A DNA stretch of 64,000 bases from Escherichia coli (GTDB lineage Bacteria; Pseudomonadota; Gammaproteobacteria; Enterobacterales; Enterobacteriaceae): NCBI RefSeq assembly GCF_024700885.2, contig NZ_CP117016.1. One strand, written 5' to 3'. Positions 30,882 to 38,319 of this stretch are shown piece by piece. The notes under the pieces are model-generated. The model had not been told where the DNA came from. It did not search any database and was given only the letters and a program-made list of their open reading frames with translations. Both the position numbers and the translations under genes were made by a program. Every line of letters begins with the position of its first letter. Within the stretch, counting starts at the first letter, position 1.

Positions 30882-31190
30882 TCAACAGACCGGTGTACCT
30901 TTTCTGAATACCTCCCCGGACGGACTGGCAATCCCCATTCTCCTCAGCGTGGCATCTGCAGCTTTCGCCACTTCGCTGATATCCAGCTTTTCAGGTAGCG
31001 GCGGGGACGATATCTGCGCCAGGCAATAATTCCTGCGCAACAACAACCACTCCCGTTGTGCTTCTGTACATTCAACATTTCCCATAACAAAAAGCCAGCG
31101 GGCAGAAGCTCTGCGCCAGCAACCAGCAGCCTCCAGTTTTTGCGCAACCATGTCTTCCACGACTTCCGGGGGACTCTTTTTCCTGCTCAA
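30882..31190 (-). CDS. PerC-family transcriptional activator-like protein
   Basis: 102 aa; AQKLEAAGCWRRASARWLFVM...REWLLLRRNYCLAQIS resembles the PerC-family core (LEAKGLWRRAA.RWL) as I recall it. Confidence 0.5.
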   Translation of the reverse strand: MSRKKSPPEVVEDMVAQKLEAAGCWRRASARWLFVMGNVECTEAQREWLLLRRNYCLAQISSPPLPEKLDISEVAKAADATLRRMGIASPSGEVFRKGTPVC

Positions 31191-31229: not shown

Positions 31230-31874
31230 TCAGCGAACCGTCCATGCCGGGCTGAAGTCCTCTTCCTGAAACAATTCCGTCAGCCCGCTAATCTGTTTCA
31301 GTCTCAGTACTTCATCCTGGTCCATACCCAGCTCAGTGCCAATGCGTTCATCCATCCAGCCCAGGCGTGAAAGATCCCTGACAATATCGGACATAGAGGT
31401 TATCTGGTGTTTACCCCTGGCCCGGTTATGTCGAATGGTCGCTGCAATACGTGAAGCCTGTCCCTTTCTTTCCGGATTAATACAGGTCACTGGCAACCAG
31501 CCCTTCAGACGTTCTCCCGTACCTGCTTCCCTGCCCAGTAACTGACGATGAAAACCATCCACGACCAGATAATGCTCTTTCTCTTCCGAGACAACCACAG
31601 GCTGCGTGAACCCATCCTGCTCCAGTGAATGTTTCAGCAGTTTCTTCTCACCCGGCGCCATGACATTGGGGTTATAATCGTTAGCCACCACCTCATCCGC
31701 TTTCACCCACAGCACACAGTCCACAGGCTCCTGTGCAAAAGGACTGACCTCATGAAGCACCCTGCGCAGGTGATTAAGGGCCTGTATGGCCTCTTCTTCT
31801 GGTCGTTCCTGGCTGAAGTACTGACGAATCATGTCACTCAGTACCTCCACTTCAGGTGTCACAGAATCCCCCAT
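31230..31874 (-). CDS. ibrB: ParB-like nuclease domain protein, IbrB-like
   Basis: 214 aa; ParB/Srx-type motif (NDYNPNVM...LEQDGFTQPVVV...YLVVDGFHR); overlaps the upstream PAPS-reductase-like gene. Confidence 0.65.
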   Translation of the reverse strand: MGDSVTPEVEVLSDMIRQYFSQERPEEEAIQALNHLRRVLHEVSPFAQEPVDCVLWVKADEVVANDYNPNVMAPGEKKLLKHSLEQDGFTQPVVVSEEKEHYLVVDGFHRQLLGREAGTGERLKGWLPVTCINPERKGQASRIAATIRHNRARGKHQITSMSDIVRDLSRLGWMDERIGTELGMDQDEVLRLKQISGLTELFQEEDFSPAWTVR

Positions 31875-33091
31875 TCATTCCTCCTTTCCTTCATACGCTG
31901 CAGGTAACGTTCATAGTGCCGGGGTTTGTTCGGACTGAAGGAGAGAGTCCGGCACCAGAAATCATTCTTTATGAGTGTTTTACAGATACGTCGCCAGGAC
32001 GGAATATCCCGGCTCCCCAGATCATTCTCCTGTTCGTTCGGGATGTCATCCGGGAAGCCCCGCGTCTGATACCAGCGCAGGTAGACAGCAATTTTATTAC
32101 GGTAATGTTCTGCCGTTCTTTCCGGCATCACATCCAGCAGGAACATCGCATAGCTGCGCCAGGTATGATGGGCCGGTTTTGATATACGTTTACGCAGGGC
32201 AAAATAGGCACCGCTTTCATTGGCATAAAGCGCCCCGCTGGCAGCGCCTGACACCCGCTCACACATCCTGGCCCAGGTTTCCGGCTCCAGAACATGGTAA
32301 AGCCACAGTCCCTTACGTTGTTCAGGACCAAAAGGTTCACAGACACGCATGTTGCGTAACGGTACGCCGGCACGGTACATCAGGTCATACAGGGGATTGT
32401 AGATGGCACGGGTTCTGGTGTGATATATCCAGATATCACGAGTTTTCCAGTCATACAGCGGATACATGGTGTAGTAAAACCCTTCAGGCGATGCCGTGGT
32501 CCAGGGCTTATCATCGGCGTATCTCAGTTTGCGCTGGGATACCAGTCCCATGAACCGGTTAAGGGACTCATCCGCACGGACACCGGTCAGTACTGCCACA
32601 CCACATTTATTGTCTGCAAACCAGGAAGAAAATGCCGGAACAAATTCTTCAAACGTCATGGCATACCGGTAAAAGGGAAAATACGCCATATCTGTAATGG
32701 CCCCCTCCGGTGGCTGGCGAACCCACTTCACACCAGACTCCCAGCATATCCACTCCGGCTGAAACTGAGAAACACCGTTTACCGTGGTCAGGGGAAGTGC
32801 CACCCAGTAAAAGGTTTCCGTCACATCATGGTACATTTCCCGCATCTTCTGAATATGTTCAATGGTGCACTGGTACTGAGCCTCCCAGTCAATGAACAGT
32901 ACAGAGAAACGACGTTTTTTCCTGCGGGCCACATCAGCCAAAAGATGGAAAAGCACGGTGGAATCTTTACCACCGGAAAAAGAGAGACAAACTGATGGAA
33001 ATGTTTCAAAAATCCACTCAATACGAGCAATTGCTGCACGCAGAACATTAGTACAAAGCCAAATTTTGTCTGTCATTAAATGATCACGCAT
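31859..33091 (-). CDS. ibrA: PAPS-reductase-like (PP-loop ATP pyrophosphatase) protein, IbrA-like
   Basis: 410 aa; PP-loop motif CLSFSGGKDSTVL near the N-terminus; paired with the ParB-like gene as in ibrAB. Confidence 0.65.
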   Translation of the reverse strand: MRDHLMTDKIWLCTNVLRAAIARIEWIFETFPSVCLSFSGGKDSTVLFHLLADVARRKKRRFSVLFIDWEAQYQCTIEHIQKMREMYHDVTETFYWVALPLTTVNGVSQFQPEWICWESGVKWVRQPPEGAITDMAYFPFYRYAMTFEEFVPAFSSWFADNKCGVAVLTGVRADESLNRFMGLVSQRKLRYADDKPWTTASPEGFYYTMYPLYDWKTRDIWIYHTRTRAIYNPLYDLMYRAGVPLRNMRVCEPFGPEQRKGLWLYHVLEPETWARMCERVSGAASGALYANESGAYFALRKRISKPAHHTWRSYAMFLLDVMPERTAEHYRNKIAVYLRWYQTRGFPDDIPNEQENDLGSRDIPSWRRICKTLIKNDFWCRTLSFSPNKPRHYERYLQRMKERRNEWGIL

Positions 33092-33131
33092 TACTGAACA
33101 ATATTATCTGCATCCCTTGATATAAAACAAT

Positions 33132-33962
33132 TCATAATTTTTGTATCGAGTTGGCCAACCTTTTTTCATTACCAAATCGAGTTGTGTAATATCTCTCTTC
33201 GATACCATACAGCAAAAGTTTAAGCTCTTCGTCACAAGAAATTTCGAAACAGCCAGTGCCATCATCAAACTTTAATTTTTCAGAGCAATAATCATTTATA
33301 TAAGTTAGCATATTCCCCCTGTCACTTACATCCATTTGGTTTAACGTATCCATCGCTAACGCTATTCTTTTTCTGTTTGGTTTTGAAACATTACATGCTT
33401 TATATTCACCAGAGAGAGCAATAAACGACTCCCCCAGAAACTGTTCAACATCCTGTTCTGTTGCCTCTTTATAAAGAGTATCGATACCATTAAACATGGA
33501 AGAAATGGCTGACAAGGATTTAAATATAAGCGTGTCCTTTGCAGCAAGATATACTGCATCCGGGGTCTGGTTAACAACCAGACGATTCTTCCCGCTCTCT
33601 ATCTTTGCTCTATCACCAAGTTCGATCATTTTTTTCTTGAGATATAATGATGGTGTTACCTTCTGAAAATAAAAGTCACCACTTTGAAATGAAAAAATAA
33701 ATGCTATCTTTGAAAAATATTTTTTAGGCAATTCATCATAATTTTTTGAATCAAACTCATCTTTCAAAAAGGATGGGCAGTATTCCCGTTTACTAAATTC
33801 ACTGAGACTAAACCAGGAATCTTCATCAAGATTATGATCCGGTGCATACGGAACCAATGAACACACTGACAGATCAACCCTTTCAAAAAGGGTATGATCT
33901 GAGACAATCTTAAAATATGGTTTTTTCCTGAGACCTTTTGCTTTAACAAATACATTATCCAT
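33132..33962 (-). CDS. Hypothetical soluble protein (276 aa), second gene of the AT-rich two-gene cassette
   Basis: Translationally coupled to the upstream membrane-protein gene; strongly AT-rich codon usage; no catalytic motif recognised. Confidence 0.5.
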   Translation of the reverse strand: MDNVFVKAKGLRKKPYFKIVSDHTLFERVDLSVCSLVPYAPDHNLDEDSWFSLSEFSKREYCPSFLKDEFDSKNYDELPKKYFSKIAFIFSFQSGDFYFQKVTPSLYLKKKMIELGDRAKIESGKNRLVVNQTPDAVYLAAKDTLIFKSLSAISSMFNGIDTLYKEATEQDVEQFLGESFIALSGEYKACNVSKPNRKRIALAMDTLNQMDVSDRGNMLTYINDYCSEKLKFDDGTGCFEISCDEELKLLLYGIEERYYTTRFGNEKRLANSIQKL

Positions 33963-33964
33963 TC

Positions 33965-34525
33965 TTATTTCCTTTCGATAAAGGTATAGTTATTAATCCT
34001 GAAAGCCATGGGCACTACAATATCTTGCGGTACTTTATACCTATAAGGACTGATAAGAAAAATCGACGCTCCTGTTTTTGTCTTAATATTATAAAACTCA
34101 TACCTGAAAACAAGAAACAAAGGATTGAAATATAAGGCCTGAGATAAAAATGTAAAAATAAACAGCACTCCATAAACAAAGAACAACGCCCCCCAGTTAT
34201 TTATACTCAGGGCAACAAAAAAGTACCCCAGATAACTCGGTAAAAAAGAGTTATTCGCATGCTCAACTGAAATCACCTCACCTTTTTTAAACTCATCTTT
34301 TCCCAGCGCAGCACTAAGCACAAGACTGACTTTAGTCAAAACAACAGGTATTAAAAAATAAAAAAGATACGACCCTACCTGAGGAATACCACTTAACCAC
34401 TGTAAACTCTGTTCATGCTGAAAAAAGTAAAACAACGTATATTTCCTTTGCACCAAAAATATAATTATCAACAAAGAAGTGGCATTGAATGTAAGCAGCA
34501 ATCTAAAAAGGATGTTAATTATCAT
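33965..34525 (-). CDS. Small polytopic membrane protein (186 aa, about 4 TM helices), first gene of the AT-rich cassette
   Basis: Hydrophobic segments INILFRLLLTFNATSLLIIIFLV, VGSYLFYFLIPVVLTKVSLVLSAAL, YLGYFFVALSINNWGALFFVYGVLFIFTFL. Confidence 0.5.
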   Translation of the reverse strand: MIINILFRLLLTFNATSLLIIIFLVQRKYTLFYFFQHEQSLQWLSGIPQVGSYLFYFLIPVVLTKVSLVLSAALGKDEFKKGEVISVEHANNSFLPSYLGYFFVALSINNWGALFFVYGVLFIFTFLSQALYFNPLFLVFRYEFYNIKTKTGASIFLISPYRYKVPQDIVVPMAFRINNYTFIERK

Positions 34526-34739
34526 GATATCTGGTTCCTGGACATCTAAAAATCATGCGTCATATCACACAATTTGCATTATGAATAACCATAACAATAT
34601 AACTCAGTTATTGCTACCCAAGCCCAGTATTTAAATAACTATACTATCAATGCGTAAGACCACATTAATGCTCCGCTGAAGAAGAGAAGCACTATACTCT
34701 GCAGTGCCTTTAGAAAATTATTCTCCAAAAGATGGAATA

Positions 34740-36107
34740 TCACTTCATGTCCCCTTGCGTCAAAACCCAGTAACGACTCACCAGCTCGACAAGACCATTT
34801 TCCACCTTTTTTTGCTGCTGTTCACTGCTATTCTGGTTACGAACTTCATCATAGCGACGTAACTGCTCTTCTGCCGGGATATGCCGGTTAAAAGCCTGCA
34901 TGATGCCAAACACCTCCGTTTTCAGTTCACTGACCGTCATGTATTTTCCCCGCTGCTCATCCAGACGGTTCAGGCGCTCAGCCAGCTGCTGTAAGCGGGT
35001 CATGCCTTCGTTCCAGCCCGCCATCGCCTCTTCCGGGAGCGCACGACTCCTTACACTCTTCTGCCAGTTATCCACCATTTCCTGAACACGGGGATTGTCG
35101 GGAAAAAGTACCCTCAGTTGCTGCAGCAGCTGCGCACTGCGTTGCAGGTTGTATGCCGGGGGTAGTTCTGCCAGTCGTGTTATCTGCTGACCGGAAAGGG
35201 TTATCCACTCTGACGCATGATTTAGCAGTGAAGGTGTTCTGCTGAGCTGTGTCATCTGGCCTGCTGAAAGCACATCCGGTGGTGGTGTCAGCAACGCCCT
35301 GAGTTGCTGCTCCGCCGGTGATGGCTGTGTCAGAAACTGCCATCCCGGAATGGCCACGCTGACCGCCAGCAATGCCGCACAGACACCAGTTACAAACGGT
35401 TTCAGAAACGTGGGCGGGGATTTCTGAAGGGAATGTGTGTTTTCTTTTCCGCTCTCTGCTTTTGTTTCAGAAACAACATACACCAGACGGGAGTGCGGCA
35501 GGGTCTGATGTTCCTGTACGTCCGGAGCATCAGACCGGAGTGCCTGCGCCGGAAGGGTTACCGGAGACGATACTTCACCCTGCACAGGCTGGTTCTCCAG
35601 GCGGGTGATATATCCCTTCACCATGGCTTCCGGTAAAGCCACTTTACTGCTCTGTTTAAGTTCGTGCCGGGCCAGTGTGTCACTCAGTGCCTTCAGGAAT
35701 GTTTCGGTCTGATACAGCAGGGGCAGGTTGTCACGGTCGTCCGGAGGCATGGCCCGAAGCGTTTTTTGCAGATGGTTGAACAGACCGGTAATAATTTCCA
35801 GCCGGGCGTGGGTATTCAGCGGCCACATCACTGACCAGTGATGCCGGGTCAGCGCCACAATCAGAGCCAGCCCTTCATTCAGACCACTTAACCCTGTTGT
35901 ATGCATCCGGGCGATGGTGTACCAGGATGCCGTCTGTAATTCCACGCCATTGTGTTCATACAGACGCAGGCAGAGTGTTTCCACGTAACGCCAGTCCACA
36001 TCCGGGCGTGCCGGGTGAGTCAGTTTGCTGATTTCATCGCGCAGGGCAGCATAATCCGGTAATGACCGGGGGTCACCACCGGTTTTCAGTTTCACTTCAG
36101 AAGTCAT
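34740..36107 (-). CDS. ImpA-N-domain membrane protein, VasL-like T6SS accessory protein
   Basis: 455 aa; ImpA-N-like N-terminus (DPRSLPDYAALRDEISKL...NGVELQTASWY...GLNEGLALIVAL) and a central TM helix (VTGVCAALLAVSVAIPGW). Confidence 0.6.
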   Translation of the reverse strand: MTSEVKLKTGGDPRSLPDYAALRDEISKLTHPARPDVDWRYVETLCLRLYEHNGVELQTASWYTIARMHTTGLSGLNEGLALIVALTRHHWSVMWPLNTHARLEIITGLFNHLQKTLRAMPPDDRDNLPLLYQTETFLKALSDTLARHELKQSSKVALPEAMVKGYITRLENQPVQGEVSSPVTLPAQALRSDAPDVQEHQTLPHSRLVYVVSETKAESGKENTHSLQKSPPTFLKPFVTGVCAALLAVSVAIPGWQFLTQPSPAEQQLRALLTPPPDVLSAGQMTQLSRTPSLLNHASEWITLSGQQITRLAELPPAYNLQRSAQLLQQLRVLFPDNPRVQEMVDNWQKSVRSRALPEEAMAGWNEGMTRLQQLAERLNRLDEQRGKYMTVSELKTEVFGIMQAFNRHIPAEEQLRRYDEVRNQNSSEQQQKKVENGLVELVSRYWVLTQGDMK

Positions 36108-36161: not shown

Positions 36162-36467
36162 TCAGTGTGATACCGGTACCCGGGAAAGGTATTCCACCGC
36201 GCGGATAATTGCCGGTGTCACATCCCACCGCCGTTTCAGAACCGGCAACAGCTCATTAAGGTTTCTGATATAACGCTCAGTGAACAGCCGTTGTCCGTCC
36301 CTGGTTAAATGAAAACCTGACTGATTACAGGTAATGGTGATATGACAGGTATCGTTGCCAATATATACGGCTTCCTGGGGTCTGAATCTGACATTCCAGT
36401 ACCAGGAATACGGGGAATGATTAAGATGAAAAAGACGCATCTGAATGTCACTGAATAATGGATTCAT
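36162..36467 (-). CDS. Small conserved hypothetical protein (about 101 aa)
   Basis: Probable start at MNPLFSDIQ (internal to the track ORF 36162-36572); a frameshifted paralogue lies at 4450-4748, in both cases near a vasL-like gene. Confidence 0.5.
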   Translation of the reverse strand: MNPLFSDIQMRLFHLNHSPYSWYWNVRFRPQEAVYIGNDTCHITITCNQSGFHLTRDGQRLFTERYIRNLNELLPVLKRRWDVTPAIIRAVEYLSRVPVSH

Positions 36468-36531
36468 CATAAATAAAATACACCTGATAATAAAATATAG
36501 TGGAAAACCAGAATAAAGAAATGGTCCGGTA

Positions 36532-38319
<1,788 letters not shown>

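Follow-up and report, generated by a model that had tools for sequence, protein, structure and literature searches.

A probable stand-alone Kiwa system of a deeply divergent lineage in a pathogenicity island of Escherichia coli

A two-gene, AT-rich cassette

The DNA analysed here, referred to as the window, is a stretch of 64,000 nucleotides of Escherichia coli (contig NZ_CP117016.1, assembly GCF_024700885.2), and our subject is a cassette of two adjacent genes on its minus strand that encode a small membrane protein of 186 amino acids (aa) and a soluble protein of 276 aa. We consider that this cassette is probably a stand-alone, horizontally acquired Kiwa system belonging to a deeply divergent lineage, and we put the probability of this reading at roughly three in four. 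The reading rests on the gene anatomy, the family-level similarity, the folds of both proteins, their strict pairing across phyla, their co-divergence and the defence-island context. The genes, which we call kwaA-like and kwaB-like, and the features around them are as follows.

33965..34525, minus strand: kwaA-like gene, 186 aa, RefSeq WP_000586175.1 (open reading frame, PADLOC and fold)
33132..33962, minus strand: kwaB-like gene, 276 aa, WP_000370895.1 (open reading frame, PADLOC and fold)
33963..33975, minus strand: gene junction, with an AAGGA Shine-Dalgarno sequence at 33970-33974, the TAA stop at 33965-33967 and the spacer at 33963-33964, followed by the kwaB ATG
33050..34781, no strand: AT-rich segment, probably acquired, 1,732 bp, 80% coding, filling the slot between ibrA and a VasL-like open reading frame
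34526..34739, minus strand: upstream intergenic region, GC 0.35, the presumed site of a putative cassette promoter

The two AT-rich genes had been pointed out in a first-pass annotation of the window, and the open reading frames and GC profile bear this out: the GC content is 0.339 for the kwaA-like and 0.351 for the kwaB-like gene, versus 0.501 for ibrA, 0.545 for the VasL-like open reading frame (ORF) and 0.461 for the whole window. Given the base composition of the segment itself, a frame would be free of stops with a probability of 4.6e-7 over 186 codons and 4.0e-10 over 276 codons, calculated per frame position, of which there are about 3,500. As in Kiwa, the kwaA-like gene comes first and the kwaB-like gene second, co-directionally and within one operon. 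Read directly, the junction is ...GAAAGGAAA TAA GA ATG..., which leaves a spacer of 2 nt and places the Shine-Dalgarno sequence within the last kwaA-like codons, 7 nt 5' of the kwaB-like ATG. The short spacer and the embedded Shine-Dalgarno sequence are consistent with translational coupling of the two genes, as had been proposed. A scan for promoters and terminators around the cassette gave a single promoter-like site at 34763-34736 and a single terminator-like site at 34709-34687, counts that are no higher than the shuffled expectation.

The membrane protein resembles KwaA

The AlphaFold2 (AF2) model of the 186-aa protein (mean confidence score, pLDDT, 81.6) contains four hydrophobic helices, at residues 2-26, 49-73, 95-107 and 111-127, with which the Kyte-Doolittle windows agree, and a set of strands located at 75-77 and 84-89 in the first intracellular loop (ICL1) and at 143-149, 154-159, 174-176 and 181-183 in the C-terminus. 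By prediction from the charge distribution, the K/R-rich loop and tail face the cytoplasm. In the model, the protein thus has the predicted topology of KwaA, that is, four transmembrane (TM) helices combined with strands in ICL1 and the C-terminal region. When the model was compared with the Protein Data Bank (PDB) using Foldseek, the top five matches were all KwaA chains (9mrx_A with E 5e-4 and template-modelling scores of 0.61/0.59), and the next match had an E value of 1.4.

At the sequence level, six KwaA models of PADLOC match the protein, the best with 3e-10 over residues 5-165, with modest scores that stay below seed level. The Pfam family PF28043 (KwaA) is on record for many members of the KwaA-like family and is weak in close relatives; a strong match is present in the partner of a 30%-identical family member. 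One recent record of the NCBI annotation pipeline PGAP names WP_000586175.1 'KwaA family protein'. The KwaA-like family is unusually conserved: as read from a 35-sequence alignment (A2), HANNSFLPSYLGYFFVALS at the entry of TM3 and SQALYFNPLFL at the exit of TM4 are invariant across phyla.

The soluble protein resembles KwaB

The 276-aa protein is soluble, with a maximum Kyte-Doolittle value of 1.0 in a 19-residue window and a grand average of hydropathy (GRAVY) of -0.42, and it consists of a beta-rich N-terminal and a helical C-terminal domain, corresponding to the two-domain fold of Kiwa KwaB, in which an N-terminal alpha/beta domain is followed by a C-terminal DUF4868 domain. Hydropathy, AF2 and GRAVY thus agree with the original description of a four-TM membrane protein accompanied by a 276-aa soluble protein. 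Four KwaB (DUF4868) models of PADLOC match the protein (best 2.4e-12), aligning residues 36-273 with positions 46-288 of the 292 in the model, and the same models score 45-71 bits on seven diverse KwaB-like members. Across diverse members, the PADLOC Kiwa models score between 35 and 71 bits, always below seed level; the lineage lies outside the PADLOC Kiwa seed sets and inside their detection range.

The KwaB-like family is large: it forms 1,531 clusters when grouped at 90% identity, and grouping at 50% leaves 486 representatives. Its members are 270-285 aa long and have no Pfam domain on record. Twelve basic positions, including N196-R197-K198-R199, are conserved in the family, a pattern that is compatible with DNA binding by the KwaB-like protein. 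It should be noted that many members (P0009, P0016, P0019 and others) are named 'ATP F0F1 synthase synthase' by NCBI. Neither Pfam nor fold searches gave any similarity of the family to ATP synthase, and the name looks like a propagated misannotation. Through this lineage, Kiwa comes to include proteins that are missed by standard Pfam annotation and often misnamed.

The two genes are strictly paired across phyla

To date, our scan of species-representative genomes, for which the KwaA-like alignment served as the query (the KwaB alignment has no conserved stretch), has given 80 loci, distributed over Gamma- and Betaproteobacteria, Desulfobacterota, Bacteroidota, Fibrobacterota, Kiritimatiellales and Ignavibacteria. 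In 79 of these loci, the kwaA-like gene is followed immediately by a kwaB-like gene of the same strand; in the remaining one, the contig ends too early. Both genes are full-length in 79 other species, and the junction between them ranges from -4 to +5 nt in most of the 79 related loci. The pair is also present on an Apilactobacillus plasmid. It was found in none of 50,697 phage records, and among 2.9 million viral contigs just 2 contained it; the near absence of this lineage from phages and satellites distinguishes it from characterised Kiwa. The divergence of the KwaB-like proteins tracks that of the KwaA-like proteins (rho 0.83), and this co-divergence is compatible with an interaction between the two.

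The surroundings of the homologues are those of defence genes. They are found beside type I, IIG and IV restriction-modification (R-M) systems, BREX, defence-associated reverse transcriptases (DRT) and integrase islands, and the survey did not show the consistent non-defence context that, according to the first-pass annotation, would have spoken against a defence role. A UG5-nitrilase defence reverse transcriptase lies 3' of the pair in six loci, and integrases are present in 17.

Some details of these loci are worth recording. In the six loci with the reverse transcriptase (L011, at 11410-13266, and L015, L020, L023, L030 and L065), the RT_UG5-nitrilase gene (PADLOC 5e-174) is directly downstream of the pair and co-directional, and hsdRMS genes are present upstream, forming a recurrent array of R-M, Kiwa-like and DRT genes. 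Two Marinobacter loci (L003, 4436-7346; L061, 7035-9936) have three co-directional genes directly upstream of the pair, an adenylosuccinate synthetase-like gene, a DUF7002 gene and a gene of about 190 aa, none of which matches PADLOC; the trio may form a defence module of its own. The source annotation of L003 leaves a gap at 7346-8001, where it did not call the kwaA-like gene.

Membership of the Kiwa family and a candidate mechanism

The only solved structures among the fold matches of the two proteins are KwaA and KwaB. Judged by the models, both proteins would be Kiwa homologues by fold, whose sequence likeness to characterised Kiwa is almost gone. The layout of the cassette had been read as a defence pair consisting of a membrane and a soluble protein, with 'Kiwa-like' as one option, and the PADLOC KwaA and KwaB matches together with fold matches to solved KwaA and KwaB alone argue for that option. 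The accompanying suggestion that the system is undescribed does not hold: by homology, which would also predict its function, the cassette appears to be a divergent variant of the described and mechanistically studied Kiwa family.

Several observations weigh against this assignment. With phmmer, neither protein had a sequence match among the PDB Kiwa chains, and no such chain was reached by the family profiles A1 and A2 or from the divergent members P0355 and P0374 (a homologue search starting from P0355 returned four proteins). The identity to the solved chains is 9-11% for KwaB and 15-21% for KwaA, and at 276 aa the KwaB of this lineage is about 40 aa shorter than the solved canonical KwaB of 315 aa. 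In addition, Pfam PF16162 (the former DUF4868, KwaB) does not match the 276-aa protein at E<=10. Finally, the frequent fusion of the pair to R-M operons described below makes it conceivable that the pair normally needs a partner for its activity, one which the E. coli cassette lacks.

As for the Pfam result, the check by hidden Markov models (HMMs) that had been proposed for the cassette gave a divided answer, in that the Pfam DUF4868 model misses the soluble protein while the PADLOC KwaA and KwaB models match. We read the PF16162 miss as the sensitivity limit of one HMM, because the PADLOC KwaB models and the fold both match. When 122 family members were scanned singly, PF16162 matched 7 at E<=1e-3 (best 9.7e-7) and 12 at E<=0.1, and no other family recurred among them. 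The failure of Pfam DUF4868 to match the sequence also accounts for the 'hypothetical' label of the soluble protein in RefSeq. Neither protein matched Pfam-A (in a copy without PF28043) or NCBIfam.

Canonical Kiwa has been described for KwaA and KwaB of E. coli O55:H7 RM12579 and ECOR strains, with the structures 9mrx, 9mrg, 9mrr, 9mtn, 9nyu and 9o0i (PMC11785009). In that system, membrane KwaA tetramers carry KwaB dimers, the two being joined into a supercomplex by way of the KwaA beta-barrel. The complex is triggered when the membrane is perturbed, be it by phage attachment, by ejection of DNA or by conjugation; KwaB then attaches to the entering DNA irrespective of its sequence and stops replication and late transcription. 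Protection against phages and plasmids requires both genes and is achieved without abortive infection (PMC11785009). The same preprint reports that KwaB is bound by the DNA mimic Gam (PMC11785009).

By analogy, the KwaA-like protein would assemble in the inner membrane with its four helices in the bilayer, and its ICL1 and C-terminus would form a six-stranded cytoplasmic beta-barrel onto which the KwaB-like protein would dock. Phage attachment, DNA ejection or the transfer of a conjugative plasmid would disturb the membrane and be sensed by the KwaA-like protein, whereupon the KwaB-like protein would bind the DNA that enters, whatever its sequence, and so prevent replication and late transcription while the cell survives. 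For this lineage, we infer the oligomerisation, the trigger, the DNA binding and the anti-phage phenotype from the canonical system. Compared with characterised Kiwa, the lineage is set apart by its extreme sequence divergence combined with a strongly conserved KwaA. The concept of a membrane sensor is shared with Zorya, whose inner-membrane complex ZorAB detects invasion and recruits a cytoplasmic DNA-acting activity; Zorya uses a MotAB-like motor and nuclease or helicase effectors, and we found no sequence or fold relationship between it and the KwaAB-like pair.

The combination of a small polytopic membrane protein and a soluble partner would fit an abortive-infection or toxin pair, in which the membrane protein is a lethal pore controlled by the soluble protein. 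The central pore of the canonical KwaA tetramer, which has been likened to a channel, and the almost invariant TM3 and TM4 exit in this lineage are in line with such an activity. However, the two folds are specific matches to Kiwa, searches of Pfam, NCBIfam and PADLOC yielded no toxin or antitoxin family, and Kiwa is reported to protect without abortive infection (PMC11785009). The toxin or abortive-infection pair that the first-pass annotation had listed as an option is, on this evidence, very unlikely.

Association with restriction-modification operons

In 40 of the 80 loci, type I R-M genes are located directly upstream of the pair and co-directional with it; when only the loci having at least 5 kb of upstream flank are considered, the number is 37 of 61. 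The neighbouring clusters were identified by PADLOC as MTase_I (8e-290), Specificity_I and REase_I. Two gene orders dominate, hsdR-M-S-kwaA-B (17 plus 2 loci) and hsdM-S-R-kwaA-B (13), and a third, hsdM-S-kwaA-B-hsdR, occurs in 2 loci; the pair lies inside the type I operon in L054, L073 and Neisseria gonorrhoeae. Of the 24 junctions between hsdS and kwaA, 22 measure -8 to +3 nt, and of the 13 between hsdR and kwaA, 6 measure -4 to +2 nt; overlaps of 4 nt are frequent, and these are operon-type junctions. Where no type I system is present, other enzymes can flank the pair: one of type IIG, one resembling a type II REase whose gene overlaps kwaA by 4 nt, one resembling type IV, or BrxL. Such habitual fusion to R-M operons is another difference from characterised Kiwa, with the proviso that the adjacency was counted for this lineage alone.

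The R-M genes and the pair do not share the same history. Between the two main gene orders, HsdM and HsdR have 26% and 22% identity, compared with 76% and 71% within each order, whereas the pairs are almost as similar between orders as within them (69% versus 73% for KwaA, and 61% versus 63% for KwaB). The divergence of the pair is weakly linked to that of the R-M proteins (rho 0.14 for KwaB-HsdM and 0.23 for KwaB-HsdR, in a range of 0.14-0.25), compared with 0.83-0.84. The presence of near-equal pairs beside unrelated R-M families (22-26% identity), and the uncoupled divergence, therefore indicate at least two dockings onto type I operons. The type I link was not reported in the part of the literature that was searched, and there is no mention of it in the Kiwa preprint (PMC11785009).

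These observations raise the question whether the pair is an R-M accessory module that acts only together with a type I or another R-M enzyme. It might hold the incoming DNA at the entry site, soak up anti-restriction proteins that mimic DNA, or provide a backup in the manner of PrrC, and the E. coli copy would then be an orphan that is either inactive or cooperates in trans with a chromosomal R-M system. The adjacency in 37 of 61 loci, the tight junctions, the location of the pair inside some operons, the docking on unrelated type I families at least twice and the presence elsewhere of BrxL or of other restriction enzymes (type IIG, type II-like, type IV-like) all speak for this possibility, as does the binding of canonical KwaB by the DNA mimic Gam (PMC11785009). 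On the other hand, some 40% of the loci, including the window, have no adjacent R-M system, and yet the pair is intact and conserved; moreover, canonical Kiwa works alone, and defence genes also cluster without functional dependence. In the window, neither an R-M gene adjoining the pair nor an hsdR remnant is present. Based on these considerations, we regard a strict dependence on R-M as unlikely.

Another possibility is that the lineage is a distinct, R-M-coupled branch of Kiwa, which has been recruited repeatedly because it cooperates with restriction, and of which the E. coli cassette is a detached copy. Such a branch could pin the incoming DNA at its entry or, in analogy with Gam and KwaB, partition Ocr or ArdA away from the R-M enzyme. 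We put this forward as a tentative and rather unlikely alternative to a Kiwa system that stands alone. The parallel that we have in mind is the anticodon nuclease PrrC, presumably a non-R-M module located within, and co-expressed with, the type Ic R-M locus EcoprrI, an arrangement to which we liken that of this lineage in most other species. It should be kept in mind that the proteins and the chemistry of PrrC and the KwaAB-like pair are unrelated, and that the window copy has no adjacent R-M system. The repeated coupling to two unrelated type I families provides a lead on the cooperation between a membrane sensor and a restriction enzyme; for the window itself, where no R-M system is adjacent, the result is mostly a gain in annotation.

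Three of the R-M loci have features of their own. In the N. gonorrhoeae locus (L090, 2871-10502), the order is hsdR, hsdS, a kwaA-like gene that overlaps hsdS by 8 nt, a kwaB-like gene and hsdM; the record is a 2.17-Mb gonococcal chromosome that is mislabelled as a plasmid in PLSDB. NgoAV was considered as the identity of this R-M locus and was dropped, the published layout being different. In Vibrio cholerae (L093), the order is hsdM-S-R-kwaA-kwaB-RhuM, and the island that carries these genes is located beside trmE and also encodes mobI, a DUF927 protein and an integrase; we take it to resemble an SXT-mobilisable genomic island. A comparison of L099 (3698-4891) with L008, two almost identical islands, showed that HsdM, HsdR, KwaA and KwaB are 96-99% identical and HsdS only 34.5%, which by sequence would be a swap of the specificity subunit in an otherwise conserved hsdMSR-kwaAB operon.

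Acquisition and genomic surroundings in E. coli

The window has 100% identity to strain MLI114 and 99.9% to enteroaggregative E. coli (EAEC) 042, and the whole cassette is present in about 25-26 of 5,426 complete E. coli genomes. In E. coli 21AR0303 (L088), both flanks are kept and the slot is occupied by a 214-aa gene, with homology to the window stopping at 33049 and resuming at 34782. This different cargo in the same slot, and the position of the homology break, therefore identify the 1,732-bp AT-rich segment as swappable cargo. Homology to other Enterobacterales relatives (68-69% DNA identity) is restricted to 33131-34540, that is, to the two genes. The suggestion that the AT-rich cassette is a separately acquired unit is thus supported by the GC contrast, the swapped slot and the rarity among E. 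coli genomes, and these features point to horizontal acquisition. The alternative slot gene, at 6933-7577 of L088, encodes the hypothetical protein WP_024181942.1 of 214 aa, which has no PADLOC match and may be another unrecognised cargo gene of the variable ibrA/VasL slot.

The cassette is located between two type VI secretion system (T6SS) clusters of an island of the EAEC 042 type, 40 nt upstream of ibrA and on the same strand, and around it lie a NERD-UvrD helicase, a GIY-YIG nuclease, VasL/ImpA gene fragments and ibrA-ibrB-PerC.

31230-33091, minus strand: ibrB and ibrA (ibrA similar to reductases of 3'-phosphoadenosine 5'-phosphosulfate, PAPS; ibrB ParB-like)
about 30882-31190: PerC, next to ibrA/ibrB
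34740-36107, minus strand: VasL-like ORF, intact, 455 aa, N-terminus TssA/ImpA-like (TIGR03362, 1e-22)
36162-36572, minus strand: 136-aa ORF that overlaps the 3' end of the NERD+UvrD helicase gene
36532-38319, minus strand: NERD+UvrD helicase, 595 aa, PADLOC candidate system C3a187 (1e-139)

This location, together with the ATP synthase name on many relatives, might suggest that the pair is cargo tied to its neighbours, such as a T6SS effector-immunity or accessory pair or a part of the ibrAB-PerC regulatory block, or else a housekeeping protein. The neighbourhood survey led us to reject a functional link to ibrAB or T6SS, and we consider the adjacency to ibrAB-PerC incidental, because the block is found elsewhere in E. 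coli with unrelated upstream content; this set of explanations can hardly be entertained. The ibrA-ibrB-PerC block is itself mobile, with matches in varied contexts in 2,309 E. coli records, in which the homology always stops at 33049, inside the 5' end of ibrA. The ibrA gene has a weak match to the BrxP and DndC PAPS-reductase models.

The Kiwa-like pair, the NERD-UvrD helicase and the GIY-YIG nuclease constitute a small defence islet between the T6SS clusters, which includes a swappable cargo slot. In this EAEC 042-type pathogenicity island, a pair of 'hypothetical proteins' becomes recognisable as a probable anti-phage system, which matters for the prediction of phage susceptibility in enteroaggregative strains. 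The helicase is named '3'-5' exonuclease' by RefSeq, and the GIY-YIG nuclease lies farther along from it. In the VasL-like region, which PGAP cuts into three pseudogene fragments (ImpA_N, POTRA/ShlB and VasL), the 455-aa ORF may be a chimeric remnant.
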